DNA of 64,000 nt from an uncultured delta proteobacterium (GTDB taxonomy: Bacteria; Desulfobacterota; Binatia; UBA9968): contig CAWJZV010000030.1 in assembly GCA_963847445.1 (NCBI GenBank), forward strand, positions 224,001 through 288,000. Direction: 5' to 3'. Within the stretch, counting starts at the first letter, position 1. Each line of letters begins with the position of its first letter. Below, one piece after another: positions 1 through 51,581 of the stretch. The position numbers and the translations under genes are program-made. The notes under the pieces were generated by a model. The model was given only the letters and a program-made list of their open reading frames with translations. It did not search any database and was not told the origin of the DNA.

Positions 1-403
1 TCGCTGGTATGACGGTTGAACTCTCCCCACCACCCCACAGCGCAATCAGCCCCGCCGCATGCGCACACACCTCATCCCAACCGACAGCGCTCTGCCCTTT
101 CTCCGACCGCCGCCGTCCCTTGGTAATCAACCGGCACAGATTGGCGTAGCCGCCACGATCCTGGGCCAGCAAAACAATTGTCGAGCCGTCATCGATCGAG
201 ATCTCCGAGCCGATGATCAGCTTCAGCCCCACCTCGCGCGCCTTCACATGCGCCCGCACGACGCCATAGACCCCATCCCGGTCGGTCAACGCCAACGCCG
301 GCAGGCCCTGCCGAAACGCCTCATCGACCAACTCATCCGGATGGCTCGCGCCTTCGAGGAAGGAAAAATTACTTTTGCACCAGAGGGGAATGTAGGAGGA
401 CAT
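1..403 (-). CDS. dnaE2: Error-prone DNA polymerase III alpha subunit DnaE2/ImuC, N-terminal PHP domain (runs off the window)
   Basis: My translation from the ATG at 403: MSSYIPLWCKSNFSFLEGASHPDELVDEAFRQGLPALALTDRDGVYGVVRAHVKA...LLAQDRGGYANLCRLIT. SNFSFLEGASHP and ALTDRDG are DnaE2-type motifs. Confidence 0.93.
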   Translation of the reverse strand, partial: MSSYIPLWCKSNFSFLEGASHPDELVDEAFRQGLPALALTDRDGVYGVVRAHVKAREVGLKLIIGSEISIDDGSTIVLLAQDRGGYANLCRLITKGRRRSEKGQSAVGWDEVCAHAAGLIALWGGGESSTVIPA

Positions 404-410
404 TGGGAAA

Positions 411-440
411 ACCTACTTGGCTAGAACAGCCTAAGTAGGT
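411..440. promoter_or_regulatory. Near-perfect inverted repeat just upstream of dnaE2 (operator or RNA hairpin)
   Basis: acctacttggct-agaac-agcctaagtaggt. Confidence 0.4.
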
Positions 441-639
441 CGATCTCGTCCGAAATGCAATAAAAACGGCAAATCGCCAGTAGCTTGAGAACTTTCCGTA
501 TAGTCGATACCGGCAGGGGGGCGAAGCGGAATCAGAATGCTACTAAGAGGCAGATAAAAAGAGGGGGCCGTCCACCCCCCTCCGACCACCAGAATGATCG
601 GAGGGGAAGTTGGCGCAAACCAAGATGCTGGTGTTTAAA

Positions 640-2241
640 TCACAGCACCAAGCGCAATTTTAAGATCGCAGCGATTTCGTTGAAAACGGCAGTGAGCTGC
701 TGCGTGACGTTGCCGCTATCGTCGACGATAAAGACCTTGCCCTTCTCTTGAGTCGTATCGATGCAAGGACCGGTGCCACAGGGCCAGGATTGGAGCAAGT
801 CAGCGTGGGTATCGCCGTCGACAGTCGTCGTGAACACGCCGTTACAAACCGTCGTCATGGTCTCAACGACACCCGTAGATAAAGTGACTATATCTGTGGC
901 GTTAGCCATACGCGCGAGCATGCATTTCGCGTTAGCATCCAAGCTACCTTGCGGCTGGCTAGCGCTCGGTTGGCCGATCGCGATGGCAAAAAACACGACG
1001 TCGTGCGCCCCGCCTGCGGCGCAGGCGCTATTACCATAGCCACAGTTGCGAATTTGATTGGCTTCGTGCATCGCTCCGTTAGTAACGCATCCCGTGATCG
1101 ACCGAGTACAGCGAATTACCTCGCGGTACAAAGCAGCGTTATCGCCTGATCCAGGAATGCGCCCAGCTGCACTGAGATTAGAAAAATCCTTTCGTCGCAT
1201 GTATTGTTGTGAAGAACTGCTAGTCCAGCTTGGAACACCGTGTATGCATCCACCGCTCACCCCTCCGGTATTTCCCGGCGCGGGCAAAATGTTTCCTGGG
1301 AGTATCGGGTTATGCTCACACTCCGAAGCGCTGTCCCGCCGCATGAAGGTCGGTTGTCCATCGGTAACGAGCAGAACGGCCTTCCGGGTCGTCGCACGGG
1401 TTGGATCGGTAAACGCCGCAGCCAACGGCGGCCGAGCCGTCCGCACCCCCTCCATTGTATTCGTACCACCGTTGCCGCCGTTGGTGGACAGCGCGGTAAC
1501 CTTGCTTTGCAACGTGCTGATGTAACTGCTCGTGGCAAAATCCAAAGCGGCATCAGGAGCACAGGTAGCGGCCGTCGAGTCGACTCCCGACGAGTTACCA
1601 CAACCACGCCACGCGAAGCTGGTCATGCCGATCCGGTCATTCGCCGAGAATAGATTCGATAACCCCAAGAATGAGTTGACAGCCGATTTTAGCGAAGCGA
1701 TTCTCATCGTGCCAGTCCCATCAGTCGCGTCCATTGACCCGGAGCGATCGAGCACGAGCATCAGGTCGATAGGTCGCTCCGGCCCCGCTTCGGCTTGGAC
1801 GACGACATTGATGGTTGAATAATCACCGGGCGCCATCCAGCCGAGAAATCTCAGAAACGTCGTCGGTACTGGCTCGCTGCCAATGATGCGAACCGCGCGC
1901 AAATCCGGACCGCCGGCCACGGGCATGTTGAAAAAAGATATCGTGGCGGTGATCGGTGCACCGCTGGTGGTCGAGCAGGTATTGCCACCAGTCCAAGCAA
2001 CCTGTGCACCGTTCATGAGCATGGAATCGCAAGCCGCTCGGGTGGCGTCGGTCTCGAAGGCGACTTGTCCTTTCAGGACTTTTGCCGCGGCCAACGCCGC
2101 GCCGTCTATAAGACGAGAGACACGCGCCTTCTCCAGATAGGCGCGGCCAAAGTCAACGGCAAAGCCGATAAATGTTCCCAGGAGGGCAAACCCCAGAGTG
2201 AGAAAGACAAGAAATGAGCCTCTTTGGTTTAGCTTGCGCAT
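640..2241 (-). CDS. TadG-like Flp pilus protein with VWA domain
   Basis: N-terminal RGS...TM...AVDFGRAY Tad motif; VWA motifs DRSGSM, GGTN, VTDG. Confidence 0.85.
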   Translation of the reverse strand: MRKLNQRGSFLVFLTLGFALLGTFIGFAVDFGRAYLEKARVSRLIDGAALAAAKVLKGQVAFETDATRAACDSMLMNGAQVAWTGGNTCSTTSGAPITATISFFNMPVAGGPDLRAVRIIGSEPVPTTFLRFLGWMAPGDYSTINVVVQAEAGPERPIDLMLVLDRSGSMDATDGTGTMRIASLKSAVNSFLGLSNLFSANDRIGMTSFAWRGCGNSSGVDSTAATCAPDAALDFATSSYISTLQSKVTALSTNGGNGGTNTMEGVRTARPPLAAAFTDPTRATTRKAVLLVTDGQPTFMRRDSASECEHNPILPGNILPAPGNTGGVSGGCIHGVPSWTSSSSQQYMRRKDFSNLSAAGRIPGSGDNAALYREVIRCTRSITGCVTNGAMHEANQIRNCGYGNSACAAGGAHDVVFFAIAIGQPSASQPQGSLDANAKCMLARMANATDIVTLSTGVVETMTTVCNGVFTTTVDGDTHADLLQSWPCGTGPCIDTTQEKGKVFIVDDSGNVTQQLTAVFNEIAAILKLRLVL

Positions 2242-2266
2242 AATTACTCCCTCTCATGCTTTTAGG

Positions 2267-2842
2267 CTACACCGAGCCGCTGACATTGGTAAAAATAGTC
2301 CTATCGTAGAAATCAGTGTTAATTCCCTTGCCAACATAGGTAACGATGTACGGTAAGTAGTTGAAATAGACTTCTATGACTTGGAAAGTTTGCCCCGCTA
2401 TAACACTGCCGATACCGGGAATAGTAACGATCTCATTGACCGCGCCGGTGCTGCTCAGCTTGCTATTTTTGACCAGCAGCCCGCGCGTCAATTGACTTTC
2501 AATTCGGTACGTACAGGGAGTCGTCGGTGGATTGGGACATGGGACAGTAATGTCTTGGGTCACCTTGGAATAAATGATCTTCCAGTTGGCTTGATTGGAT
2601 GTCTTGAATGTATCCGACGCCGACGCGATGATGGCATCGAGAGCATTACTGGCTGTGGTGCCGCGGGAAACCAAATTAGCGCCTTCGCGGGAAGTATGGG
2701 TCATCGTTAAATGAGTGCTGATAACCTGGCCTACTTCGATGGCGCCGTAGGCGAGAAATATCATGAGTGGCGCGATCAGCGACAGCTCGATGAGCGACTG
2801 CCCCTTCTGTGAACCGAGCCTAGATCTTAGTGATTGCATCAT
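2267..2842 (-). CDS. TadE/TadG family pseudopilin
   Basis: GQSLIELSLIAP prepilin-like motif; SREGA. Confidence 0.85.
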   Translation of the reverse strand: MMQSLRSRLGSQKGQSLIELSLIAPLMIFLAYGAIEVGQVISTHLTMTHTSREGANLVSRGTTASNALDAIIASASDTFKTSNQANWKIIYSKVTQDITVPCPNPPTTPCTYRIESQLTRGLLVKNSKLSSTGAVNEIVTIPGIGSVIAGQTFQVIEVYFNYLPYIVTYVGKGINTDFYDRTIFTNVSGSV

Positions 2843-2859
2843 AATACCTCCAAGTTTGT

Positions 2860-9569: not shown

Positions 9570-10154
9570 ATGAATCGCCACCAACGACGCGCTTACTTAC
9601 GCGAACTGCGCCCCTTCTTGATCGCTAGTCTAATCTTCTTCACCGTCGGGGTGGCATTCGGCGTGGCCGTGGCGAACCGCTTTCCAGGGCTGGCCGATCA
9701 TTTCGGCGACTCCATCACCGGTTTTCTCAAAACCTTCCGCGGCCTGCCCAAGCCACAACTCGCCGTCGCGATCTTTCTCAACAATTCAGTGAAGACATTG
9801 GCCGCGATCTTGTTAGGCTTAGCCATGGGCATCGTGCCGGCGTTGTTTCTGGTCGTCAACGGCGTCGTCCTCGGCGTGGTCTTTTTTCTCTCATCCCAAA
9901 GCCGCGGCGTGTGGCCGTCGCTATTGGCGATCTTGCCCCACGGTGTCATCGAACTCGCCGCGGTATTTCTCGGCACCGCCATCGGCCTCATGCTCGGCGA
10001 CCTGGTGCTGAAACGGCTGCTGCGAAAATCCGACGCGAAAATTCGCCCCGCTCTCGGCCGCGCCCTGCGCTTTTTCGCCATCGTCATCGTGCCGATGTTG
10101 CTCATCGCCGCATTGATCGAAGCCTTCGTCACCACCGCCCTGATCGGAACCTAA
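9570..10154 (+). CDS. Stage II sporulation protein M (SpoIIM) family membrane protein
   Basis: IFLNN, NG, LPHGVIEL, AALIEAFVT. Confidence 0.9.
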   Translation: MNRHQRRAYLRELRPFLIASLIFFTVGVAFGVAVANRFPGLADHFGDSITGFLKTFRGLPKPQLAVAIFLNNSVKTLAAILLGLAMGIVPALFLVVNGVVLGVVFFLSSQSRGVWPSLLAILPHGVIELAAVFLGTAIGLMLGDLVLKRLLRKSDAKIRPALGRALRFFAIVIVPMLLIAALIEAFVTTALIGT

Positions 10155-10700: not shown

Positions 10701-11885
10701 TTACTTCTTTACAGCGCTAGCGCAACGAAAGCCGATGCTATCATCACGATGCTCGGGCGGCGCATGCATCCGCTTCGTGCTGGTCAGCCGTTCGGGGGGA
10801 TCGTACCAGCCGCCGCCGCGCAGCACTTTGTCGGTACCGCTCGCCGGCCCCTTGGGGTTGCGCGTGTCGGCGCGCGGAAAACTTTCCGTGAACCAATCGG
10901 CCACCCACTCCCAAACGTTGCCGGAAAGATCATCGACACCAAAGGGGCTCGCCCCTTTAGGATGGGCCCCGACGACGGCGACGCCGTCTTGGTAAACCGA
11001 GTGCTGGTGATTCTTTGCGAAGCGCGCATGCTCGGCGCTTGGCGGCTCGTTGCCCCAGGGATATTTCCGTTCATCCGCGCCGCGCGCGGCCCGCTCCCAC
11101 TCCGCGTCGGTCGGCAAACGCCGGCCCGCCCACTGGCAATAACTGTTGGCATCTTGCCAATCGACACCGACAACCGGCAGACCGGCGTGCATCTTGAGAT
11201 CCGCAGTCTCCCATTCTTCAGGCGGTTTGGCGTTGCCAGTCGCCTTCAAGAAGTCGCCGTAACGAGCCACGGTCACTTCGTGCTTGTCCAGGTAGAACGC
11301 ATCGACAAACAGCTCACGGCGAGGCGACTCTGAATCATCACCCCAGATAAAAGTCCCCGCTGGAATCATAACCGCCGGTGCGCCATCGTTACCGACTAAC
11401 TGGTTTTTCGCCTGACCTTTTAACCCATAGTAAAGCGCCGCGCAGGCCGCGACGACGACTGCCGCGGTAGCGATCATGCGTTTGACCCGCCGGCGCCGCC
11501 AGTCGGCGGCGATGCGATACACTGCGGCAGCGACAGTAGCGGGCAAGTTGCCGTCGGTTTCGAGAAACGTCACCGCCTTGAGCGCGGCGGGTAGCTGCTC
11601 TACAGCCAATTTGCCGAGGGCTACCGGCAGCAGCTTGACGCTGGCTTTCTCGGCGATGTCGAGTTCCGTCAAAGTATAGCTGCCGGCGTCCACGGCATTG
11701 GCACTGATCAAAAATATCAAGAGTTGCGAAGCTTCGATGGCCGCTCGTATGCGGTTATGGAATTCGTCACCCGCCGGCAGATCGGCGCGGTCATAGAACA
11801 CCGTATGGCCCTGATCCCGTAGCGCGAAATAAATCGACTTCGCCGGCTCGGCATCTTGGGAGGCGTAACTGAGAAATATCTTCAT
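10701..11885 (-). CDS. TIR domain + TM + FGE-sulfatase (SUMF1-like) domain protein
   Basis: N-terminal IFLSYAS...YTLTEL (TIR); C-terminal RLPTDAEWE, GNVWEW, RGGGW, GFRC. Confidence 0.88.
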   Translation of the reverse strand: MKIFLSYASQDAEPAKSIYFALRDQGHTVFYDRADLPAGDEFHNRIRAAIEASQLLIFLISANAVDAGSYTLTELDIAEKASVKLLPVALGKLAVEQLPAALKAVTFLETDGNLPATVAAAVYRIAADWRRRRVKRMIATAAVVVAACAALYYGLKGQAKNQLVGNDGAPAVMIPAGTFIWGDDSESPRRELFVDAFYLDKHEVTVARYGDFLKATGNAKPPEEWETADLKMHAGLPVVGVDWQDANSYCQWAGRRLPTDAEWERAARGADERKYPWGNEPPSAEHARFAKNHQHSVYQDGVAVVGAHPKGASPFGVDDLSGNVWEWVADWFTESFPRADTRNPKGPASGTDKVLRGGGWYDPPERLTSTKRMHAPPEHRDDSIGFRCASAVKK

Positions 11886-11991
11886 GACCTCCCTAACTTT
11901 TCACCCGATAGGAGCAAACCAGTAAAAGCCCGGCGATCGGGCTCGTCACCAAGCTTCTTCTATCGATTGCCGTGTCATCCGCGTGCGCCGC

Positions 11992-37590: not shown

Positions 37591-37651
37591 GTCTAACGTT
37601 CACGGGTAAGAAGCGCGGTCTGCCGCGGCGGTCTCAACCCATTGGTTAGCC
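37591..37651 (-). repeat. attC site
   Basis: gtctaac...gttagcc. Confidence 0.8.
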
Positions 37652-37652
37652 A

Positions 37653-37946: not shown

Positions 37947-38164
37947 CTAGACCGAGAGCGAATCTGTTGCAGGACCTGGTCCCAAGGAATGCCCTCAGGT
38001 CCCGAGCGTTCGAGATCGTCAAGTCGCCGATCAAGTTCCTCGCGCTGCGCGTTGGTCAGCGGAACAGTTTCCGGCGTCTCGTTGAGGCTGTCCCATAGTT
38101 CCTCAATCAGACGCAGACGCTCTTCAGGACTCATCTCGCCGATGTTTAGCGCGGACTTGCTCAT
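37943..38164 (-). CDS. Putative addiction module antitoxin
   Basis: ERLRLIEELWDSL; ELDRRL; W. Confidence 0.88.
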   Translation of the reverse strand: MSKSALNIGEMSPEERLRLIEELWDSLNETPETVPLTNAQREELDRRLDDLERSGPEGIPWDQVLQQIRSRSR

Positions 38165-38221
38165 CGATCTAAATATGCCACGTTAACAGTTTCTCTGCCA
38201 CCGCCCGCCCGCTATCCCTTT

Positions 38222-38272
38222 GGCTAACTTGCCGATGACCTGCTGGCGTCGGCGTCCATCGCCTTGTTAGAC
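38222..38272 (-). repeat. attC site (51 bp)
   Basis: ggctaac...gttagac. Confidence 0.75.
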
Positions 38273-38275
38273 GAT

Positions 38276-38866: not shown

Positions 38867-38912
38867 TACGAGACAATAGTCAATGTGAGCAATGATCCCA
38901 TCCTCGTGTGCC

Positions 38913-38969
38913 GTCTACGTGAAGCTAGCGGCCCGCCGAAGGCCGGCCCGCTTGAGCGCAAGGTTATGC
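38913..38969 (-). repeat. attC site (R' has a 1-nt deletion)
   Basis: gtctac...gcggcccgccgaaggccggcccgc...gttatgc. Confidence 0.7.
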
Positions 38970-38981
38970 GGTCCTGATCGA

Positions 38982-39905
38982 TTACCCGCGCGTCCTTTCC
39001 AATACGTCAAACACTAGGTTAAGACACTCGTCAACTCTGTTGGTTATTCCAAAGGCGAATGGCGGTGTTCCGAGTGCGGGGTTAAAGCGACCGACGGTGA
39101 AGATCAAGGGGATGAGAATGCCTCTTTCTCGCATTTGCTTAAGGAACCTGATCCCTTCATCCTCCACCGCATCCCGCTCCATGTCTGATATCACAACGTG
39201 ATAGGTATCGCTGGAAAGCGCGCGAAGCGCACCCTCGGAGGAAGTTTCAACCTGCACATCAAGACCGAGATCACGTAGGATTTCGATGACGTGGGACATC
39301 TCCGCAGGAATGTCGTTGACCAAGAGAAGGCGCGCACCTCGAATCACGGTCTCTATTCTTGCGGCTCGCCTGGCGACCTGCGAACGACCAGACTCCGTAC
39401 TTACTGACTCGCGCGCAGGGATTCGCTCGAGCTCGTCTTTAACCTTTCTATACAGCAAGAAACGCCCAAGCGATGATGCAACTTTGAAGGCCAAGTCTTC
39501 CGGGGTAGTAAAGGAATCGGTAACGACGGTCTCTCGAAGGCGCTGGAGAAATTCACGAAGACGCGTTCGTCCTGGCTCCGTCTCGATGTGCTTCGGTGGC
39601 CACGGATACTCCTCGTCTACAACAAAGCAGAATGTCGGTTTGTTCTGCTCCTTTGCGACGTCGAACTCTTGCACCGTAATTGACTTCGACTGTCCAGAAG
39701 GTACGTATCCATATCGATGAGCATAGATGCCGATCAGCGCGTCGGAATCTGAGATTTCTTCGATGCAGGCCCTGGTTGCCTCAAGCGGTCTCGCGCCGAA
39801 CACTTCCATACGAACGCCCTGCTGGCCGAGTCTCTCAATGGCCCGGGCAGCCGCCTCGCGGTGACCAATTAAGTCTTGATATGTTGAGCTAAGAAAGATC
39901 TTCAT
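38982..39905 (-). CDS. DUF4062 domain + receiver-like domain protein
   Basis: IFLSSTY.DL..HR, RYG, SIT.QEF; C-terminal LLLVND...VVISDMER. Confidence 0.85.
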   Translation of the reverse strand: MKIFLSSTYQDLIGHREAAARAIERLGQQGVRMEVFGARPLEATRACIEEISDSDALIGIYAHRYGYVPSGQSKSITVQEFDVAKEQNKPTFCFVVDEEYPWPPKHIETEPGRTRLREFLQRLRETVVTDSFTTPEDLAFKVASSLGRFLLYRKVKDELERIPARESVSTESGRSQVARRAARIETVIRGARLLLVNDIPAEMSHVIEILRDLGLDVQVETSSEGALRALSSDTYHVVISDMERDAVEDEGIRFLKQMRERGILIPLIFTVGRFNPALGTPPFAFGITNRVDECLNLVFDVLERTRG

Positions 39906-39936
39906 CGTCTCGGTCTAGGGCGCCGATCGCGCATCC

Positions 39937-40000
39937 GCATAACGCCGGAGTTCAGCGGCGGGCCGCGCAGCGGACCGTCCGCTGCAACCGGCTGTTAGGC
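39937..40000 (-). repeat. attC site
   Basis: gcataac...cagcgg/ccgctg...gttaggc. Confidence 0.88.
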
Positions 40001-40027
40001 GACGCGGTTGAATCATAAAACGTCCGG

Positions 40028-41274
<1,247 letters not shown>

Positions 41275-41332
41275 CGCACTGAGCTGCACCTTGGACACTC
41301 TAGCGGTGATTACTGTCCGGCGAGTCGCGAGA

Positions 41333-41863
<531 letters not shown>

Positions 41864-41883
41864 GTCACTCCCTTTCCTCGCAC

Positions 41884-41946
41884 GGCACATCCGCGCGGTT
41901 TTGAGGCGGCGCGGCGAGCGCCGTCCGCTGCAACCGGTTGTTAGGC
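41884..41946 (-). repeat. attC site with degenerate R'
   Basis: Minus strand GCCTAACAACCGGTTGCAGCGGACGG...; no intact GTT. Confidence 0.65.
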
Positions 41947-42608
41947 GTCATTGTGCCCTTGGCGCCGGAGTACAACATGGGTGGCTTTCTCCGACGCAAC
42001 GAACTGAACGCATTCGTATCCCAGAGCGCGCACGTCAATCCCCTCGAACAGTCGCTCTCCCCGCCCAGCAGGACCGGCGAGATAGCGACGTGCAGCTCAT
42101 CGATGAGGCCCGTACGAAGATATTGCTGGATAGTGTTAGGTCCGCCGCCAATGCGCACATCCATTCCGTTGGCTGCGTCGCGCGCCCGGTCAAGCGCCTC
42201 GTGAATACCGCCCGTGACGAAGTAGAATGTCGTTCCGCCTTCCATCTGGATGGGCGGGCGCGCGTGATGAGTCAAGATGAAAGTTGGAACGTGATAGGGT
42301 GGGTTGTCCCCCCACCAGCCTTTCCAGTTCATGTCGGGCCAGGAACCGCGAATCGGTCCGAACATGTTTCTTCCGAGAATCCAGGCGCCAACATTCTTGA
42401 AGCCCCGCGCAGCGAAGTCGTCATCGATCCCCGTTGTGCCACCGTCGGCGCCAAATAGGGTCCGTTGGAGCGTGCGTGTCGGGACTAACCACTGGTGCAA
42501 ATCTGTCCCGCCCACGCCGAGCGGATTCCTGATGTCCTGATTCGGACCAGCTCCGTATCCGTCAAGCGAGATGGTAAAGCCCTCAACTCGGACGCGTGTC
42601 ATTTTCAT
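41941..42608 (-). CDS. Dihydrofolate reductase/RibD C-terminal family (frameshift near the end)
   Basis: ISLDGY.AGP, ILGRNMF, GWWGDNPPYH, GGG, LIDEL. Confidence 0.88.
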
Positions 42609-42626
42609 GCCTTCCTTTCGATTGAC

Positions 42627-42728
42627 GCCTAACGATCTGGCGATAACCCGCGCCGATTACAACCACGATATCGCCGCAGCACGCGTCGTCGATTCTGCGG
42701 CAGCGCCGGGTTCATCGCCGTGTTATGC
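42627..42728 (-). repeat. attC site (~102 bp)
   Basis: gcctaac...ggcgataacccg/cgggttcatcgcc...gttatgc. Confidence 0.85.
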
Positions 42729-42757
42729 CGTCTTGTGGCGCGGTCGTTTTCGGTGTC

Positions 42758-43231
42758 TTACTGATGGGTGCGTTCCCAAGCCTTTTGCTCTTCGCGGCCT
42801 TGCCAGATGATTTCACGTGAAAATTCTCCCGTTCCGATCCAGAAAAGGGACGGCTTTAGCTGCGCGTATTCGAGAAAATACTTCAACGCCTCGGCCGCTA
42901 ATTCTTCCGAGACGAACAACTCGCGGGGCCAGCGTTCAAGAGCCTGGCCACCGAGGTTGATTTCAACACTTGGGGAAGAAAAATCATTTCTGTTCACGAG
43001 GAAATGACCAAGCGAATGGTCGTTCTCAAAACACTGGACATTATAACCTTCGCTGTCATGCCAACTGATATGAGCGCGAGGAAATTCGCCATGCGCAGGA
43101 CAGATGTATGCTTCATCCCAAGGAGCGGCGGATCGCACACGCGTTAGAACATCGGATGCTGTTGGGGTGAAAACCTCGGCTTCACCTGAGATCAATGAGA
43201 GCCGAAAAATGAACTGACGATTCTCGCTCAT
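42758..43231 (-). CDS. Imm1-like immunity protein
   Basis: LGGQ...P..LFVS...A.EAL.YF......P...W pattern. Confidence 0.6.
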   Translation of the reverse strand: MSENRQFIFRLSLISGEAEVFTPTASDVLTRVRSAAPWDEAYICPAHGEFPRAHISWHDSEGYNVQCFENDHSLGHFLVNRNDFSSPSVEINLGGQALERWPRELFVSEELAAEALKYFLEYAQLKPSLFWIGTGEFSREIIWQGREEQKAWERTHQ

Positions 43232-43243
43232 GGTTCTTATGAC

Positions 43244-43355
43244 GTCTAACGTATGGCTCAGTGGCCGCCGGCAATACGCAACTAAGGCGTGTTACGCCGC
43301 TTACTTCTCACAATCGCTGCGCTTCCGGCGGTCCATCTGAAGCCGGATGTTATCC
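43244..43355 (-). repeat. attC site (~112 bp)
   Basis: gtctaac...ggctcagtggccgccgg/ccggcggtccatctgaagcc...gttatcc. Confidence 0.85.
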
Positions 43356-43381
43356 GATCTTGCGGGGGTCGATGCAAGACG

Positions 43382-43606
43382 TTAAGCGACGGATCTAACA
43401 GTCACGAGATCGCTTTCTTGAACCGGTCTCACGTCATCGACGTTGAGTGTGACCAGCGCCTGAGTTTTGCCGGATGCGGTTACAAACTCAACCTCCAACC
43501 CATCGGGCTCGTACACTTCCACGATAGCTCCCAAATCTCCGGCGCGAAGGCCATGCTGGGGCAGGTTTCGGTCAAGAACTACTGTATCGAGAAGTTTGTA
43601 CTTCAT
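43382..43606 (-). CDS. DUF4926 protein
   Basis: LDTVVL..NLP.HGL.AGD.GAIV..Y...G.EVEF. Confidence 0.88.
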   Translation of the reverse strand: MKYKLLDTVVLDRNLPQHGLRAGDLGAIVEVYEPDGLEVEFVTASGKTQALVTLNVDDVRPVQESDLVTVRSVA

Positions 43607-43710
43607 TCCGTTTCTCCCGGGAAAGCAGTTACGAACTGAGGAACATTACTTTCAAATCGTACAATCCAAACGGTCAACACCCTAGCGGATCTCCCTGAGG
43701 GACCATTTTG
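43603..43710 (-). pseudogene. C-terminal remnant of a DUF6883-like toxin
   Basis: GPSGRSARVLTVWIV...PQFVTAFPG; ATGA-coupled to DUF4926; 5' part missing. Confidence 0.6.
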
Positions 43711-43711
43711 A

Positions 43712-44497
43712 TCAAGCATCAACCGTAATTTCTCCGCGCAAGTACTCGACAGCTTGTCCTGCGATCAAAACGCGATCACCGCGCAACGCGCAACGAAGGT
43801 CGCCGCCGCGAGCTGAAAGCTGCTTTGCAACCAGCTCGGAGCGGCCAAGGCGCGCCGCCCAATACGGCACGAGCGTGCAATTCGCAGACCCGGTTACAGG
43901 ATCCTCGGGGATTCCTTGGCGCGGCGCGAAAAACCGATAAACGTAGTCCACCGCTCCACCGGGCGCGGAGATGATGACCGCAAAGGCATCGAGAGAAGCG
44001 ATGCGCCCGAAATCCGGGCGAAAGTCGTGTATTTGTGACTCCGACTCGTAGATCGCAAGCAAGTCGCGCGCTCGATATAACTCTCTGGGGCGAATGCCCA
44101 AGGCCGCAACAACGGTATCTTCTATCTCCACTGGTTTCCCGGGACGGGAAGGAAAATCCATGCTGAGAAGATCGCCATCCCGAGTAACCGTGAGATTTCC
44201 GCTGCGCGTGCTGAATGTAAGGCGTTTCGCCGAGGGCAAGGTATGCCGGAAGAGCACGTCTGCGGTCGCCAAGGTTGCATGTCCACACAGATCGACCTCC
44301 ACCGTTGGTGTGAACCACCGTAGCGGCATGATCTCCCCATGCGGGATCACAAATGCGGTTTCGGCGAGATTGTTCTCCGCGGCGATCGCCCTGAGTGCGT
44401 CGTCAGGCAGCCAGGCATCCAGCAGCACCACTGCCGCGGGATTCCCGCCGAACATTCGACCCGTAAAGGCATCCATCTGGTAGAGCGGTAGCTTCAT
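43712..44497 (-). CDS. PhzF family isomerase
   Basis: DAFT...GGNPAAV, ETAF, EVDLCGHATLA, EDPVTGSA. Confidence 0.93.
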   Translation of the reverse strand: MKLPLYQMDAFTGRMFGGNPAAVVLLDAWLPDDALRAIAAENNLAETAFVIPHGEIMPLRWFTPTVEVDLCGHATLATADVLFRHTLPSAKRLTFSTRSGNLTVTRDGDLLSMDFPSRPGKPVEIEDTVVAALGIRPRELYRARDLLAIYESESQIHDFRPDFGRIASLDAFAVIISAPGGAVDYVYRFFAPRQGIPEDPVTGSANCTLVPYWAARLGRSELVAKQLSARGGDLRCALRGDRVLIAGQAVEYLRGEITVDA

Positions 44498-44514
44498 TGC
44501 GGTCGTTTTTTGCC

Positions 44515-44602
44515 AGCTAAAGGTTGAGCTGAGCGCCGCGGCTGCAGCGGTATGGGCTTGGCACTTTATCGTCCACGCGTGCGCTCCCGCGAGGTGTTAA
44601 GG
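44515..44602 (-). repeat. attC site (R' mutated)
   Basis: agctaaa...gagcgc/gcgctc...gttaagg. Confidence 0.65.
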
Positions 44603-44668
44603 CGGCACGAATTCGCATACGAAGCGCAACACGGCGAAGTCACTGTGGCGGCCCTATGGAAGGAATTG

Positions 44669-45221
<553 letters not shown>

Positions 45222-45250
45222 TACGGTAGCAGGGACTGCCGTAATCGGCG

Positions 45251-45307
45251 GCCTAACGTTGTGCCGCTGAGTGATCTTCTCAGATTCGCTCAAGCGGCGG
45301 GTTATCT
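45251..45307 (-). repeat. attC site
   Basis: gcctaac...gccgctgag/ctcaagcggc...gttatct. Confidence 0.85.
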
Positions 45308-45319
45308 CAATGGGAACAT

Positions 45320-45677
45320 TCACGCCAGGACGTTCAAGGTAGCCGCTGCTCTCCGGAAGCGGCTTGTCGAAGGTCCAAATTGCGCACCTTGTGAGTAACG
45401 TCGAAGCGAGAAGATGAGCATCCACCCAACCGATACCACGTCCGTACAAACGCCGCGCGTCTATGAAGCTTATGACTTCTTCGTGTTCGAGCAAATGCGC
45501 TTCGGGCAAGGCTTTCAGCATGGTGAGAATCTCGCCTCGCTTCTGCAGCGTTCCGCAAGCCAATTCGCCGATAACAAACGGATGGCAAAGGACTTGTTCG
45601 TCAAGTAGCAGACCTCTTAGACGATCATTTCCCGCTCGGAGATGCTCGATCCAGACCGAGGTGTCGACGAGAATCAT
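45320..45677 (-). CDS. vapC: VapC PIN toxin
   Basis: ILVDTSVWI, GELACG, G.VDAHLLAS, WT.D. Confidence 0.9.
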
Positions 45678-45874
45678 GCAAAGCGGCGAGGTCGACGTCT
45701 CCGAATACTGCGAAGCCGTCTCTCAGTACCTCCGAGATTGGCCAAACGGCGGGCACTCTCTTTGGCGATGAGCGCCTCAAGCCCCAAGCGTACCAAGGAA
45801 GTCTTTTCCTTGACACCAGTCAGCTTGGCGGCGTCCTGTAGGAGAGAATCATCAATGTTGAGTGTTGTTCTCAT
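45674..45874 (-). CDS. vapB: VapB antitoxin
   Basis: MRTTLNIDD.LL; KT.LV..GL.ALI. Confidence 0.9.
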   Translation of the reverse strand: MRTTLNIDDSLLQDAAKLTGVKEKTSLVRLGLEALIAKESARRLANLGGTERRLRSIRRRRPRRFA

Positions 45875-45920
45875 ATGCAATTAGGATGCCCAAATGATGC
45901 ATACGGGTCAAGTGTCGGAA

Positions 45921-45971
45921 AGATAACGCGATGCCGCTGAGCCGGAATCGGCTCGAAGCGGCGGGTTAGGC
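45921..45971 (-). repeat. attC site (51 bp)
   Basis: agataac...gccgctgagccggaatcggctcgaagcggc...gttaggc. Confidence 0.82.
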
Positions 45972-46699
45972 CGTTTGCTGTTCGAGAACATTGAATGCTT
46001 TCACAACGCTTGCGAGTGGCGGAAGCAACTCTTCGTCAGGAGGATCGTCTTTGTGCTTCACGGCTTTCCACCGTTCATTCGCCTCATCCGCGGCTGCAGC
46101 GAACGCCGCCAGTGCCTGGTCGGACGTTGCACGTGCATACTCAGAAAGTGTAGCGGCGATCTCGCCGAGCGTTGCCTTCGCGCGAACCTTGAGGCCTATA
46201 TCTTTCGTGGCGAGACGGAAAGCCTCTTTCTCAAGCTCCTTGGCCACTCTGCCGAAAATGCCTGAGCGGTGCGACCCGAATGTTGAGGGTGCCCGATCAA
46301 GTGTATCCTCGGCGTAGATTCTTCGCGTATTTCTCTGGATGACCTCGGCCGCCGCGATGTATTTCTCTGGGCTGCCACCGTAAGGATCTTCAAGATTGAT
46401 GTATGATGTGCGAGTTATCGGCGGGATCCTAAGATTTTCCGCTGCGAAAGGACGAAATATTACTACCACGTCGACGGACGCGAGATTAACAGACTGGATG
46501 TCGACAACCGAATGATTTGAAATATCGATTCCGAACGTTCGCATTGCACTGATAGCATTTCTCGCTGCAGGCGCCCCCCCTCCGCTTCTGTCCCGGCACT
46601 GCTGATCTGATGATTCGCACCAAAAATCCTGCGCGCGAATCCTGCGGCCATGGGGCTGCGGCACGTGTTTCCTGAGCAGACAAACAGAAGTCGAGTCAT
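45966..46699 (-). CDS. Low-molecular-weight phosphatase/ArsC-like domain plus C-terminal helical domain (frameshifted)
   Basis: LFVCSGNTCRSPMA, SAG, EDPYG. Confidence 0.8.
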
Positions 46700-46721
46700 T
46701 CTGATTTTCAGATTTCTATCG

Positions 46722-46781
46722 GCCTAACGCCTGAATTAAGCTGACCCGCGAAGCGGGTTCGGATTGAATGAATTGTTATGC
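46722..46781 (-). repeat. attC site
   Basis: gcctaac...acccgcgaagcgggt...gttatgc. Confidence 0.85.
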
Positions 46782-46841
46782 GGCAATTGCCTGGGTTTCA
46801 CAGAACTTGCCCGATGTCGGACCTGTTCAGGGCGGAATCCC

Positions 46842-47261
46842 TCAGGACTTCGCTTTCTTCGAAGGTTTCGACTTGCCAGAACTGTTGAGGGCGACCGCTT
46901 GGCGAACGAGCGCCTTGAAGGCGGACTCGTCAACTTCTTCTCCTTCGTGGATGTCGATCGCGCGGCGTACGTTTCCGTCGAGACTCGAGTTGAAGAGACG
47001 GGCCGGATCCTTCAGAGACGCGCCCTTGGCGAAGGTGAGCTTCACGACCTTCTTGTAGGATTCGCCGGTGCAGATGATGCCGTCGTGCGACCAGACCGGA
47101 GTGCCCATCCACTTCCACTCCTCGACGACGTCCGGGTCTGCTTCCTTGATGAGCTTGCGCATTCTGCCGAGGGTTTCCCCGCGCCAGTCCCCGAGTTCGG
47201 CGATTCTTTTCGAGATGAGCTCCGATGCCGACTGGCCTTGGCTCGCGCCCGACTTTTTCAT
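46842..47261 (-). CDS. DUF1801 protein
   Basis: [28 protein letters not shown]. Confidence 0.9.
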
Positions 47262-47340
47262 GTTCTCATCCTAGAAGTTCCAGATATATTTCATTTGCAA
47301 GACAGTGGAGGATAGTCATGTAAGACTTTAGAACGACGTC

Positions 47341-47401
47341 GCATAACGCCGCCCATCACGCGCGTGCGTCTTCGCACGTCGCGTGGATGGGCTTGTTGGG
47401 G
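47341..47401 (-). repeat. attC site
   Basis: gcataac...gcccatcacgcgcgtgcg/cgcacgtcgcgtggatgggc...gttgggg. Confidence 0.88.
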
Positions 47402-47404
47402 TCA

Positions 47405-48242
47405 GCTCGATCCACGTTGAGTCACTCATGTTCTGTCGCTCTGACCACCAACGCCGGCAGTCGTCCGCTCTTTGGAAGATGCAGGATCCTAAACTTGAAC
47501 TCTGAGAATTCCGCGAGGGATCATTGGTCGTCTCCACGTCCGTCACTGCAGAATCACCACATACGAAAGCTGGTCCATGCTGACAAAGTTGTGAGTATGT
47601 AGGATCGAAATAGCAGAAGGCCGTGCTGCGCAGGTCTGGCTCTTTAGCAAGCATCATGTTCTCACCGGATTGAAACGTCCGTCGCGCTGCCTCTGGGAAT
47701 TGAGAAGGCGAGAAGCTTGTTGCCAACACTCAATCGGCTGCTCGCCGTATTGGCGATCTCCCTTGCGAAGGCATGCATGGCCGGTTTCGGGCCAATTCCA
47801 CGCTTCAAGAGGCGACGGAAGCGTCTAGTGCTTTCCGCGATCAGCAGGGAGCGATTGGCCGATGACCCGGCTCGCGTATAGCTCATTTGGCCTCAGCCGG
47901 CGTTCGAATACATGAAGAGTTTCACCTGGCGATGAACGTCGCCCTCCTTCAAGATCATTCATGTTCGTCACTAGCAGAAAGTGCGGCTGTAATGGCTCTG
48001 TGGTCGTTTGGCGCCAGCCCGCTATTAGGAATGTGAGTTCTAGTGGAAATGGCGCTCCTTTGATGGCTCGAGCTCCGTCGTTCTCGCAAGTACCTGTGCA
48101 GCAACGTACGGACTCCGGCAGTTGCTTTCTGCCAGCCGTACTGCAATCCACTCGTGAGTCGAGGCGCCTTCGGGTTCCGAAAAACCCGTATAGGCTATTC
48201 CCCAGACACCACATACCGAGACTAACTTGCACGTATGATCAT
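47405..48242 (-). pseudogene. Fragmented unknown cassette gene
   Basis: Cassette-sized interval with only broken ORFs. Confidence 0.35.
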
Positions 48243-48248
48243 CAGAGG

Positions 48249-48290
48249 CTCTAACCTTTACGTGGACCGCTCACGAACGTGAGCTGTCTA
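48249..48290 (-). repeat. Degenerate attC remnant
   Basis: ctctaac plus hairpin gctcacgaacgtgagc; no R''. Confidence 0.4.
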
Positions 48291-48363
48291 TCCGAGACAA
48301 CGAGTACGGTTCCCTGCGTGAGAGCGGCGAGAATTTGCGTCATGTGGCACCTAGCCCTTGACG

Positions 48364-48444
48364 GCCTAACAAATCAGGCTGAGAGGGCGAGACCAGCGAG
48401 CGCAGCGACCGGGTCGAAGATCCTTCTCAAGCCGATTGTTAGGC
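48364..48444 (-). repeat. attC site
   Basis: gcctaacaaatcaggctgagag/cttctcaagccgattgttaggc. Confidence 0.88.
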
Positions 48445-48459
48445 GTATTACGGAAGCCG

Positions 48460-49186
48460 AATGATGGTTTCATTGTATCTCTGCATAGCTCGCATGGAGA
48501 TCGGCAACTTGCAGCCAGACGAATAAGCTCCTGCTTGACTGATTCAAATGCTGGATGTGGTAATCGGGGATCTAGGACCACTTCATCAAGCACTGCTTCG
48601 TGATCGAAATCTACATTCACAACGCCCCCGGCGCCCATGTCGCCTTCGACGTCGTCAATTAGCAGACGTACCTCTTTTTCGTGCTCGAATTCGCGTCTCT
48701 TGATGCAACAGAATACTTGAGCAAAGTTTTGCGACTGGCCGCCAAAGCTCAGGTCCATAAAGGAAGTGGTGGCTAAAAGCTGTTCATGATCAACCCCCGC
48801 TCCAGATATCTTACAACGCCAATAAAGTATTTTAGGTCGCGGAATTTATCAGCGCGATTGTATATGGCCGCAAACAATTTTCTAATGGTCGTTGCGTCTC
48901 GGAAACCATCCTTGTTTGGACTATAGATCCTCCACACGGCAGGTGTCACGATTCATCGTCCAGCACTGACCATACCAACTTGAGGCGATGGTGCAATGCT
49001 AACCAATTTTCCAGTTGGGGTCTTTGCCTTGCACTTGAGAAAGAAATTTTCAAACGGATGTCCTACTTGGACGGATGGACGAGCCCGTTTTTGTTGCTTC
49101 GGAGAAGGTCCTTGAACCGACGGATCGGGAACACCCGATAGAATGCGCGCGTCCGAATCGTTTACATCTATGCCATTCTCTTCCAT
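48460..49186 (-). CDS. DUF2971-like protein (many frameshifts)
   Basis: PFENF; WRIYSPNK; KRREFEHEKEVRL; EVVLDPR. Confidence 0.7.
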
Positions 49187-49215
49187 ACGACTTCGTTCGA
49201 CGGCGATGCAGATAC

Positions 49216-49287
49216 GCCTAACGTTTGAGCTAAGCCGCCGGAGGAGGCCGCAGGGCGGTACCGGCCGGCTTGAGCGAGGGGTTAGAA
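49216..49287 (-). repeat. attC site (first in array)
   Basis: gcctaac...agccgccgg/ccggccggct...gttagaa; gttagaagac complements the head site gtcttctaac (50007-50016). Confidence 0.9.
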
Positions 49288-50004
49288 GACATTTTTGGTC
49301 AGCCAGTCTGCACCTTGGATCAATTCGTCGACTTGCTCACGTGTTGGCTCCTAACATCCTTCTTGTGTGAGCACAGATTTCGAAGATCAGCGAGGAAACG
49401 AAATCTTTCGCCAAGCTGTGTCAATAACGGAAGCCGCCTTCAGCGGGTCATTCAGATCGGCCGATCGTTGGATTTTTCTAAACTTTCACGCCTTTGGAGT
49501 CCGCTACTTTCTGCAGGTGACCCTCAATGACGACACCGACTAGCGCACCCGCTGCGCGGAGGCTCACGTAGGAAGCTGGATGCGACAACTAGCTCACTAT
49601 CGTGGAGTACTCTCTGGCTCGTCTGGTGTTGTGGTGCACAGGATCGACGCGCTCGGCAATTGCCTTGATGATGGCGGGCTCAACGAAGTAGTATATGAGG
49701 GTTCTCTCGTCCTGTCGAAATCCGGGTGCTGGAACTTGTGCGGGTCGAGCTCTTGAAGAAGTCATGAACCAGAAGGTTCCGTAGCCGATACGCCTTCGCT
49801 TGGGATCGATCTGCGTAGTACGCCTTGAACTCCGCAAGACGGTCCGGTGCAAGCGATGCAACGGCCTTCAGTGCCTTTGTGTACCAGCATGGTATCCTAT
49901 TGGAACGCTTGGCTACGCTTCTTCTGGAACGCGACGGCAAGCTTAGCGCCGCTGTCGTACAGGTCATCGGTCTCTTTGCGAATGAGATCTCGTTTTGCGT
50001 ACAT
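49282..50004 (-). CDS. HEPN-like protein (frameshifted), first cassette
   Basis: C-terminus pieced across frames: WRKIS/FLADLRNLCSHKKD/EPTREQVDELIQG, with an RxxxxH motif. Confidence 0.6.
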
Positions 50005-50009
50005 ACGTC

Positions 50010-50135
50010 TTCTAACTATTAAGTGAGCGATTTAGACTGCGCCAGTATTGGCCGCCTATTCCAAACAACTCCGTTGATGATAAACGACAACATTGCGAAC
50101 TGTATCGCTTACTTCCTGCATGAAAGTCAAGATTT
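50010..50135 (-). promoter_or_regulatory. attI-like array head with possible upstream promoter
   Basis: GTTAGAA core with no complementary arm; TTGACT about 115 bp upstream in an AT-rich tract. Confidence 0.45.
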
Positions 50136-50320
50136 CTCATTCCGGCAATTGCCGCCAGGTTGGCCGCTTATCCAGGCTGAAAGTCGTCGTTTCAACTTTT
50201 CAAAAGTCGGTCTGCCGGGCTTTGAACGCCTCTGCCGCCGCGATTCAAAACATGCGTGTAGATCAATCGTCGTGCTGACATCGCGACGCGCGGACAGGCT
50301 TCCGCCAGGAGCGCATGGAA

Positions 50321-50457
50321 GCGTTCAAAACGTTCAAGTTGTTCAAGTCATTCCGATGGAAACGGTTCCAAAAGTTCCAGGCGTTCCAACGGTTCTAGCC
50401 AATCTGGAATTAAAAGCGGTTCAAAACGTTCAAATTGTTCAAGTCGTTCAAAACGTT
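50321..50457. repeat. 9-bp GTTCAAnnn arrays (downstream arm of four-helix-bundle unit 1)
   Basis: gttcaaaac gttcaagtt gttcaagtc ... gttcaaaac gttcaaatt gttcaagtc gttcaaaac gtt. Confidence 0.9.
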
Positions 50458-50468
50458 GCGGATCGGAT

Positions 50469-50885
50469 TTAAGGTGTCGTACTTTTTGATTTGTTCGATG
50501 CCGTATACTTTGGGCCTTTCAACGAACTGCGCTTTAGGTAGTCGATCAGGTTGCTGATCATAATGGATAGGCGACGAAACGATTGGCTGGCAGCGTCACA
50601 ATCTTTCTGCGCGACATAGGATTGATCCAGGGCTACGTAAAGGTGCGAGCGCACTTCCCCGCACGAGGCTTTGGCGACATAGAGAAATTGAATAAATTCT
50701 TGGTTTCCGCCGCGTTCGAATCCTTCGGCGATGTTCGACAGGATCGACACTGCGGCCCGCCTGATTTGATCCCGCAACGCGAAGTCCTTGGCAAAACCAC
50801 CATCCTTCGTCATTCGATAAATCGCTTTCGTAAGCAGTCGCGCATCTTTCCAAATCTCAAGGTCTTCAAAATTCTTCACTTCCAT
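50469..50885 (-). CDS. Four helix bundle protein (23S rRNA IVS-protein family), copy 1
   Basis: Own RBS (GAGGAGGAG); FEDLEIWK, LRDQIRRAAVSILSNIAEGFER. Confidence 0.92.
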   Translation of the reverse strand: MEVKNFEDLEIWKDARLLTKAIYRMTKDGGFAKDFALRDQIRRAAVSILSNIAEGFERGGNQEFIQFLYVAKASCGEVRSHLYVALDQSYVAQKDCDAASQSFRRLSIMISNLIDYLKRSSLKGPKYTASNKSKSTTP

Positions 50886-50900
50886 CGTCTCCTCCTCTTT

Positions 50901-50940
50901 AACGACTTGAACGTTTTGAACGACTTGAACGATTGGAACC
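50901..50940. repeat. Inverted 9-bp array (upstream arm of unit 1)
   Basis: 50910-50939 is the reverse complement of 50428-50457 at 28 of 30 positions. Confidence 0.9.
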
Positions 50941-50941
50941 C

Positions 50942-51551
50942 TTAGAATTTTCTTAAGCAGCCCGACAATTTTTCCGGCGATGCGGAACTCGCCTTCGGCG
51001 ACGACGATCGGCGCGTACTTGTCATTTTCCGCTTTGAGCGTGACCACGCCGTCTTTTTTGTAGAACCGCTTGAGCGTCGCTTCGCCGTCGATCAGGGCGC
51101 AGACGATCTCGCCGTTCTCCGCCGTGGTCTGCTGCTTGACGATCACCCGGTCGCCGTCGATGATGCCGGCGCCGATCATGCTGTCGCCTTGGACTTGCAG
51201 GGCGAACTGTTTACCGCCGCCCATGTCGCTGGGAATCGCTAAGAACCCTTCGGTATTTTCCTCGCTCAAAAACGGCTTGCCGGCGGCGACCCGGCCGAGA
51301 ATCGGCACTTCACGGGTGACGTTGATGACCGCCTTGCCGAGAGCATTGACGACTTCGATGGCGCGCTTGCCGACCCGGCGGATATAGCCCTTTTTTTCCA
51401 GCGCTTTCAGATGATCGGATACCCCGTTGGTCGAGGCGATCTTAAACTGCCGGCCGATCTCATGGATCGACGGCGCAAAGCCCTGCTCGCGAATACTCTT
51501 CAAGAGAAAATCGTAGATCGCCTTTTGCCGGTCGGTCAGCGCGGGAAGCAT
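50942..51551 (-). CDS. lexA: SOS repressor LexA (true stop probably masked by a 1-nt insertion)
   Basis: LTDRQ..I, PSI.EI, ALEKKGYI, GRVAAG, GDSM, TLKRF. Confidence 0.95.
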
Positions 51552-51561
51552 GAAAGCTATA

Positions 51562-51581
51562 TACTGAAAATATTTTCAGTA
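51562..51581. promoter_or_regulatory. Putative LexA operator overlapping the lexA promoter
   Basis: Perfect 20-bp palindrome TACTGAAAATATTTTCAGTA (CTG-N10-CAG), 10 bp before the ATG, abutting TTGACT. Confidence 0.8.

Follow-up and report, generated by a model that had tools for sequence, protein, structure and literature searches.

Two integron platforms, now decayed, were probably built into the SOS mutagenesis unit of a Candidatus Binatia bacterium

Introduction

How could the genes of one SOS mutagenesis unit come to be spread over 51 kb and still keep their order and strand? The question is raised by a 64,000-nucleotide stretch of DNA (the window; G000:C30:224001-288000) from G000, a 7.19-Mb, 48-contig metagenome-assembled genome (MAG) of an uncultured Candidatus Binatia soil bacterium, which is 91.8% complete with 6.9% contamination. 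As an earlier note made from the sequence had described, lexA (start at 51551), imuA-imuB (30157-27965) and dnaE2 (start at 403) stand here in canonical order on the minus strand with two large gaps between them, ~20.8-21 kb from lexA to imuA and ~27.1-27.6 kb from imuB to dnaE2; Pfam matches and homology agree with this. The genes imuA, imuB and dnaE2 are said to form a mutagenesis cassette, often with lexA in front.

We consider it probable that two chromosomal integron platforms form part of the SOS mutagenesis unit of a Candidatus Binatia lineage, and that both have decayed in G000. The platforms would be the modules lexA-(IVP)-intI-attI and imuA-imuB-IVP-HTH-intI-attI, where IVP is a gene of the 23S_rRNA_IVP family (PF05635), HTH a small helix-turn-helix gene and intI the integron integrase gene, which follows the SOS genes directly and in the same orientation. 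Cassettes entering at the two attI sites would have separated lexA from imuA and imuB from dnaE2. In G000 each integrase would then have been cut back to a short C-terminal stub by a deletion that stops at one of the dispersed arrays of 9-mer repeats. The remnants would be a ~20-kb integrase-less attC array between lexA and imuA and, between imuB and dnaE2, an attI-like relic, a few probable former cassettes and a block of ordinary-looking genes. A cluster of attC sites without an integron integrase is reportedly termed a CALIN (cluster of attC sites lacking integron integrases).

The idea that integrons are under SOS control is central to the understanding of how stress speeds bacterial adaptation, and it has so far been based on LexA boxes in integrase promoters. 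Control of this kind is established (Guerin 2009 and Cambray 2011, cited in PMC3323433). A term search finds none of the words 'imuA', 'dnaE2' and 'operon' in the main text of Cambray 2011 (PMC3108266), and the excerpted text of PMC3323433 gives for Vibrio only a correlation between the presence of the mutagenesis cassette and the superintegron-bearing chromosome, without describing a physical embedding. Judged by titles and abstracts, none of the papers listed in literature searches describes an integron inside a lexA or imuABC unit.

The four SOS genes and the LexA box

Gene identities were taken from Pfam profiles and the layouts of relatives from tblastn. The relatives were G003, G014, G015 and G019, which belong to the same genus as G000 (G003 being the closest), the further Binatia-like genomes G027 and G029, and loci on public contigs, which carry L-numbers. 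The lexA gene (50942-51551, minus strand) encodes a LexA_DNA_bind domain (4.8e-20) and a Peptidase_S24 domain (2.2e-31), and with the palindrome in front of the gene these identify its product as a LexA repressor. The imuA gene (29498-30157, minus) is intact and matches RecA weakly (5.8e-08), which is usual for an ImuA; its product is 96-46% identical to the ImuA proteins of imuA-imuB(-dnaE2) loci elsewhere, and 96-36% identical to those of imuA-imuB loci in 55 public contigs. In imuB (27965-29535, minus) the IMS domain lies in the frame 29622-29107 and the remainder in another frame, and the stop at 27965 was set by homology. Only the 5' end of dnaE2 (1-403, minus), with its PHP domain (1.6e-22), falls in the window, and ~3.2 kb more lie beyond the window edge. 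It is clear that imuA, imuB and dnaE2 follow one another on one strand but are not contiguous, as 27.6 kb part imuB from dnaE2.

The LexA box TACTGAAAATATTTTCAGTA (51562-51581), of the CTG-N10-CAG type, is found just 5' of the lexA ATG between TTGACT and TATATA hexamers. As the earlier note had observed, this is the sole match to the palindrome in the window, even when three mismatches are allowed. We also searched for an operator upstream of imuA and dnaE2, as that note had advised; none was found near either gene in the window, by matching with up to three mismatches to the lexA palindrome or by a relaxed arm scan. The lone box lies 21 kb from imuA and ~51 kb from dnaE2. The palindrome is kept ~30 nt before lexA in G003, G014, G015 and G019 and also in 12 of 12 further lexA loci; in these four genomes and 12 loci no second box was found before imuA, intI or dnaE2, and in the compact relatives the box stands solely before lexA. 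Sites similar to the lexA box are few across the G000 genome, and the surroundings of the recA-like gene on contig C45 showed none. The LexA regulon of G000 may be very small.

The cassette array between lexA and imuA

The first gap is occupied by a cassette array (30251-50016, minus) of 17 attC-like sites, with an attI-like site at its lexA end and, where it meets the imuA leader, a G|TTAAAT junction. The sites start at 30251, 30962, 31543, 32204, 33000, 33666, 35165, 36077, 37591, 39937, 41208, 42627, 43244, 45251, 45921, 48364 and 49216. They are imperfect hairpins of the GCCTAAC...GTTAGGC type, 49-112 nt long, that follow small minus-strand open reading frames (ORFs), and their spacers are unequal (for example 3 and 6 nt at 33000-33077). 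The variable loops of six attC sites could not be aligned in MAFFT, and the sites were called by scans for motif plus fold instead. Over the 84 kb around the window such a scan gave 20 hairpin matches, of which 17 fall within 30251-49287; five shuffles gave 7-14 matches per 84 kb. With strict settings 26 matches were obtained in the whole 7.19-Mb genome, 11 of which lie within the 19 kb of the array; the loosest scan gave many false matches in coding regions and was discarded. GTTAGRC cores occur 30 times in the window against 7.6 expected, and 25 of the 30 fall within 30301-49222. By our own scan the array therefore has the defining property of a CALIN, that is, at least two close attC sites at the 3' ends of co-oriented ORFs.

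The cargo is typical of chromosomal arrays in its toxin-antitoxin genes and ORFs without a family. The toxin-type genes are ParE, BrnT, PIN and DUF4258; further cargo comprises an EEP nuclease, a split methyltransferase, a sulfatase, DUF4062, a split aldo-keto reductase, two RibD_C genes and PhzF, and many other ORFs belong to no family. One cassette, encoding DUF1801, is present twice (34010-34264 and 47043-47295, 97%). Few of the array genes are common to G003 and G014, and those that are stand in another order. A second small cluster, of three attC-like hairpins, was noticed elsewhere in G000 near a contig end (G000:C2:4767-6301).

At its distal end the array meets the conserved imuA leader (30158-30257, minus), which ends at the crossover junction G|TTAAAT (30257-30251). 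In G000, G014 and G015 conservation starts exactly at TTAAAT and continues into the imuA leader, and the attC hairpin that precedes it differs in each genome. This is the pattern that would be expected from cassettes inserted at an attI that originally lay directly before imuA. It would make the gene strand the top strand of the array and place the integrase on the lexA side; we took the polarity from the conservation of the junction because the asymmetry of the hairpin arms did not fit that expected of canonical attC sites.

Integrases in the relatives and their remains in G000

In a search with the integron integrase profile TIGR02249, which took in 41 genomes (G000 and 40 relatives, G005 included), nine of the 41 had a match above the cut-off. 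Two full integrases (468 and 466 bits) were found in G014, on the same strand and directly after lexA-IVP and imuB-IVP; G015 has one (468 bits) after imuB-IVP and G019 one (445 bits) directly after lexA, and G003 retains a 90-aa integrase stub after lexA. No intact integron integrase was found in G000, nor any TIGR02249 match at 1e-30; its best match, 102 bits against the cut-off of 265, is an XerC/D-like gene outside the window. As the MAG is incomplete, absence here means absence from the assembly only.

Both junctions of G000 nevertheless hold a trace of the gene. The first stub (50200-50297, minus), read as RRDVSTTI / IYTHVLNRGGRGVQSPADRL, comprises ~31 aa with one frameshift, and a piece of it matches residues 301-321 of a G014 IntI by tblastn (81% over 21 aa). 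The second (25600-25652, minus; THVLNRGGRGVCSPADN) consists of the C-terminal 17 aa and was matched to the C-terminus of G014 IntI; it is too short for a tblastn score and was read from the six-frame translation. Each stub starts right after a 9-mer repeat array.

An attI-like site follows each stub, on the minus strand. That of the first integron, CACTTAATA|GTTAGAA, lies at 50009-50025 with its R box at 50016-50010, and that of the second, TTCACTC|GTTAGCC, at 25432-25446 with its R box at 25439-25433. The motif TTCACT(C/T)AAT(A/G)|GTTAG was found ~165-200 nt past an integrase stop or stub at seven places in five genomes (two each in G000 and G014, one each in G003, G015 and G019), and similarity ends after the core. 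It is clear at five of the seven places and weaker at the imuB-side copy of G014 and in G015.

The lexA-side attI-like region of G000 (50009-50234), with ATAGGCGGCCAA-type repeats, resembles that of the distant G019, and the closest relative, G003, has a different region in common with G014, with ATATACGAG repeats. This hints at an exchange of platforms between lineages.

Compact and stretched layouts among relatives

The synteny comparison proposed by the earlier note was carried out, and it turned up both the compact forms and the variable content at the two junctions for which this note had asked to look. Within the genus lexA and imuA are separated by ~21 kb in G000; in G003 and G014 their spacing is 14-15 kb, and in G019 and G015 ~4.5-5 kb. 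The distance from imuB to dnaE2 is 4.7 kb in G019, 30.6 kb in G014, 35.2 kb in G003 and 36.2 kb in G015, compared with 27.1 kb in G000. Cassettes common to the relatives occur in another order or at the other junction.

On public contigs lexA adjoins imuA in L049 and L051-L054. The order is lexA-imuA-imuB-IVP in L049 and L051, intI follows in L052 and L053, and L054 ends within imuB; in L055-L057 and L093 the order is lexA-IVP-imuA-imuB. In G027 and G029 imuA, imuB and dnaE2 are contiguous and are followed by a fragmented intI, in G029 also by a long attC array. Contiguous imuA-imuB-dnaE2 was likewise found in L058 and many other loci, and compact lexA-imuA-imuB-dnaE2 occurs mostly under other phylum labels (for example L069, L074, L077, L080, L081 and L091). 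A co-oriented intI downstream of imuB was present in eight of 14 Binatia-like loci with more than 1 kb past imuB, and in none of 31 loci with lower ImuA identity, which are mostly labelled as other phyla.

Taken with the attC array, bounded by an attI-like site and the G|TT junction, the integrases at both junctions in the relatives bear out the proposal that these junctions serve as landing pads for cassettes. The further suggestion that recombination is under DNA-damage control does not hold for G000, where only stubs are left and the locus can drive no such recombination.

The gap between imuB and dnaE2

The second gap begins with genes that recall the platform module. Downstream of imuB lies a second IVP gene, IVP2 (27466-27890, minus; PF05635, 76.7 bits against a cut-off of 33.8, 1.9e-21), followed by a small XRE-type HTH gene (27086-27385, minus; Pfam HTH_3), which occupies the same position, after IVP in the module imuB-IVP-HTH-intI, in G003, G014, G015 and G019. 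Between this gene and the integrase stub are a truncated DUF5131 gene (25927-26418) and a partner ORF (26498-26974), both on the minus strand. The DUF5131 match (2.4e-61) spans only positions 32-194 of the 243 of the profile, and the G015 homologues of the pair sit in the lexA-imuA array. Beyond the attI-like site the proximal part of the gap (21726-25236, minus) carries RidA, an unknown gene, a PLD gene, an ABM monooxygenase and another unknown gene; it contains one GTTAGGC core, at 22608, and degenerate hairpins, and these ~4 kb, which are mostly common to G003 only, are possibly former cassettes.

Several observations weigh against two platforms and growth at their attI sites. The attC sites rest on a motif-plus-fold scan and not on the standard covariance model, with a background of ~10 matches per 84 kb at the loose setting, and the longer hairpin arm is on the R' side (gene strand), contrary to the asymmetry expected of canonical attC sites. 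In the distal part of the gap (640-21643) no attC-like sites above background were found, the intergenic regions look like ordinary terminators and two genes are on the plus strand, so that these ~21 kb may never have been cassettes. Three Tad pilin-like genes adjoin dnaE2 in G000 and G003 only, which means that not all growth took place at attI. Promoter and terminator scans gave counts at or below the shuffle means and are uninformative on read-through. Finally, the frameshifts described below may stem from errors of the consensus in a region that varies between strains; only relatives were present in the public runs.

It is quite possible, though we think the opposite has the better chance, that only the lexA-imuA gap was made by an integron and that the imuB-dnaE2 gap is for the most part ordinary chromosomal DNA, which came in through insertions or rearrangements that did not involve attI x attC recombination; dnaE2 would then be transcribed separately, as in many bacteria with a split cassette. 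Apart from the features of the distal block just given, this alternative gains from the size of its genes (up to 443 aa), from the gene order of the block, which between 3.5 and 21.6 kb recurs in G003, in G014 and, to some extent, in G015, from the distance of the added Tad genes from attI, and from other loci in which imuA, imuB and dnaE2 are split (L068, L071, L076 and L084). It does not account so easily for the position of dnaE2, which in each of the five genus members that have long contigs lies downstream in the same orientation, nor for the attC cores found next to intI and IVP in this gap in G003, G014, G015 and G019. In G019 the whole 4.7-kb gap has attC-like sites, with a GTTAGCT core ~100 nt before dnaE2, and in G000 itself the attI-like relic at 25439-25433 remains. 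Because the relatives carry attC cores by IVP and intI and the gap of G019 is full of attC-like sites, we read the second gap as a probable integron platform whose proximal part would consist of cassettes, now or formerly. Its distal block may be made of old cassettes with eroded sites or of ordinary DNA that came in by another route.

LexA control of the unit

Almost all genes between lexA and dnaE2 share one strand, as had been noted before, and this part of the earlier description is roughly right: SpoIIM (9570-10154) and the VOC/glyoxalase gene (14526-14966) are real genes and truly on the plus strand, and several of the remaining plus-strand ORFs are shadow frames opposite minus-strand genes with Pfam domains, but a few small plus-strand ORFs of the array remain doubtful. 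The co-orientation is a regional strand bias and no evidence of a single operon. It is not peculiar to the interval: most conserved genes upstream of lexA likewise lie on the minus strand, and the whole window shows negative GC skew.

This region-wide bias, together with the boxless imuA and dnaE2 and the scans that gave nothing for a single transcript, could be taken to mean that the order lexA...imuAB...dnaE2 is a coincidence of a plastic genomic island whose cassettes are unconnected to the SOS genes, but we find this highly improbable in view of the compact lexA-imuA-imuB-IVP-intI and imuA-imuB-dnaE2-intI of relatives, the integrases at the same two junctions in several genomes, the array that ends with the G|TT junction exactly at the imuA leader, and the restriction of intI after imuB to Binatia-like loci (8/14 against 0/31).

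On the platform reading, the compact forms are most simply seen as one LexA-repressed unit that would include imuAB and the integrase, and the integrases would be transcribed, now or formerly, from a LexA-repressed promoter. As to G000, it is likely that LexA control of imuAB and dnaE2 has been lost, barring an unrecognised operator in the imuA leader, and the window lends no support to a continued co-transcription of the four genes.

A wider scenario can be put forward only tentatively, and we regard it as rather doubtful. The integrase of Candidatus Binatia would be hard-wired in the LexA-controlled lexA/imuAB units, and the landing of cassettes would pry the operon apart and strip imuAB and dnaE2 of LexA control, the window being the end state: the integrases would have been deleted at 9-mer arrays, which flank IVP as if it were a mobile insert of the intervening-sequence type, and the uncoupled mutasome genes would be decaying. 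If this were true, a single damage-sensing promoter would switch on error-prone synthesis and cassette shuffling together. A coupling of integrase loss to the decay of dnaE2 was also considered and was rejected, as G003 lacks intI yet has an intact dnaE2.

Frameshifts and broken genes

Four genes of the window are affected by frameshifts. In lexA one extra A in an A run moves the normal ...LLRKF stop (TAA, 50944-50942) out of frame, and the resulting 360-aa ORF could be mistaken for a designed LexA-IVP fusion, an idea that was rejected since one extra A hides the TAA. In imuB there is one extra A at ~29155-29157, and another near the C-terminus, also present in G014, removes the normal ...WFLQGAVE stop frame. 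IVP2 shows at least seven small indels compared with G014, and tblastn finds it in three frames. With the intact G027 DnaE2 as query, dnaE2 of G000 gave five tblastn high-scoring segment pairs in the frames -1/-2/-3/-1/-2. Its four single-base indels are specific to G000, and the gene is intact in G003, G014, G015, G019, G027 and G029.

Public sequencing runs were also consulted. None of them contained more than 26% of the G000 words, and four of the 24 listed runs, when examined, gave only contigs of relatives, mostly less than 99% alike. The extra imuB base at 29155 was missing from the relatives' contigs in three of four of these runs, and for IVP2 the same bases are missing in relatives' contigs from public runs. 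In general the relatives in these runs lack the extra bases of G000.

It is very unlikely that faults of the metagenome assembly, such as a chimera or consensus errors, produced the stretched layout together with the LexA-IVP fusion and the damage to imuB and dnaE2. The MAG has some contamination, the shifts in lexA and imuB consist of single extra A's within runs of A, cassette arrays that differ among co-occurring strains can confuse a consensus and the G000 strain itself was in no public run. On the other hand, the linked and stretched layout recurs in the independent assemblies of G003, G014, G015 and G019, which excludes a chimeric contig as its source and makes unlikely the misassembly that the earlier note had named as a possible refutation. 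Errors could account for the frameshifts but not for the architecture. The G000 assembly has 290 open frames of at least 600 aa and 29 of at least 1000 aa, so the overall indel error is not ~1 per kb, and the neighbouring conserved genes are full length compared with G003 and G014; the frameshifts are thus locally concentrated. In dnaE2 three of the four indels lie outside homopolymers. It seems likely that imuB, dnaE2 and IVP2 are decaying rather than mis-sequenced.

Two further observations concern dnaE2. Residues ~125-165, encoded off the window (G000:C30, ~223.9-224.0 kb), include a stretch …IPAKAGIQ…RGNDG…, part of which is missing in relatives through in-frame indels and which looks like a translated small palindromic repeat, presumably inserted in frame. 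In L097 (G003; 1266-1463) and L098 (G015; 18334-18480) the N-terminus of DnaE2 is present a second time as a short piece of 49-66 aa, 1-2 kb upstream of the intact dnaE2.

Comparison with known integrons and mutagenesis cassettes

In known LexA-repressed integrons intI is usually divergent from the cassettes. With the class 1 and Vibrio integrons the Binatia platforms would have in common that the integrase is tied to the SOS response and that shuffling of cassettes is expected after DNA damage; unlike them, the integrase of the relatives is co-oriented behind lexA or imuB and has no LexA box of its own, so that any SOS control would come from membership of the operon. There is also a group of 'inverted integrase' integrons, in which intI and the cassettes share one direction of transcription. 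The relatives resemble this group in the direction of intI; the embedding in lexA/imuAB units and the IVP and HTH genes before intI are not known as features of the group.

The imuA-imuB-dnaE2 cassette is matched in the window by the same four genes in the same order and strand and by the CTG-N10-CAG-type box before lexA; it differs in that the genes are ~21 and 27.6 kb apart, imuA and dnaE2 are boxless and imuB and dnaE2 look broken. The locus resembles a CALIN in its many attC sites, in small cassettes that share one orientation and in the lack of a functional integrase, both close by and elsewhere in the assembly. Unlike in a CALIN, the history of decay can be seen in the stubs, in the attI-like sites still in place and in the full genes of the sister genomes. 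What the window adds to these systems is the double platform, the long growth of cassettes that splits the unit, and the loss of the integrase.

A lineage that carries its integrase within the lexA and imuAB units points to a second, structural way in which point mutagenesis could be coupled with cassette shuffling. The relatives, which range from compact to 36 kb apart, form a series showing the effect of cassette capture on a host operon, and the decayed G000 offers a natural comparison with sister genomes that keep intact integrases. The locus also gives a first look at the SOS system of uncultured soil Binatia, with its CTG-N10-CAG-type box, here at lexA only.

IVP genes and 9-mer repeat arrays

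The first IVP gene (50472-50888, minus) is intact (PF05635, a four-helix bundle; 111.8 bits against the cut-off of 33.8, 2.4e-32), and its counterpart behind lexA in G014 is 96% identical. Around it and elsewhere in the locus we found tandem repeats with a 9-nt period, built of units such as GTTCAAGCC, GTTCAAATC, GTTCAAAAC and similar ones, which are dispersed genome-wide: G000 has 197 such arrays in 150 clusters, compared with one for the reversed control motif, and 33 of the 150 clusters are convergent inverted pairs. Contigs assembled from short reads of other samples break at these arrays. Given the 197 arrays, the idea that they are locus-specific LexA or IntI sites was rejected.

In the window one array (25705-25771, plus) abuts the second integrase stub, and others (50313-50466, plus) lie between IVP and the first stub. 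The array between lexA and IVP (50892-50958, minus) is read through in frame since the lexA stop has shifted. Upstream of lexA, in the region 51598-51741, an inverted pair (51598-51655 and 51676-51724) is found with a terminator-like hairpin of the upstream gene. Another array lies at 27401-27458, and an in-frame one within the imuB linker (28232-28280, minus) varies in length between relatives.

In the lexA-imuA spacer of L049, L051-L057 and L093 an inverted pair of 9-mer arrays surrounds either ~100 nt of non-coding DNA or a PF05635 gene, and the two forms resemble the empty and filled sites that an insert of the intervening-sequence type might leave. IVP genes are not always flanked by such arrays, a rule that was tried and dropped, as the four other IVP-like copies of G000 have none within 600 nt.

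Genes of the distal block

The distal part of the imuB-dnaE2 gap (640-21643) carries, on the minus strand unless marked, genes for TadG/VWA, two TadE-like proteins, a 3-methyladenine glycosylase, DUF1648, a YidB-like protein, a zinc finger protein, a MOSC protein and two NMT1 proteins. Further along there are an enolase-superfamily gene, SpoIIM (plus), HIT, TIR-FGE, a CAP12-type TIR gene, VOC (plus), a solute-binding protein and an oxidoreductase, and finally a nucleotide cyclase, a broken hydrolase and a cupin.

Among these, two adjacent TIR-domain genes (10701-12981) may be defence genes. One carries a fused FGE-sulfatase domain and the other belongs to the CAP12/Pycsar effector type; the second has no homologue in the corresponding regions of the relatives.

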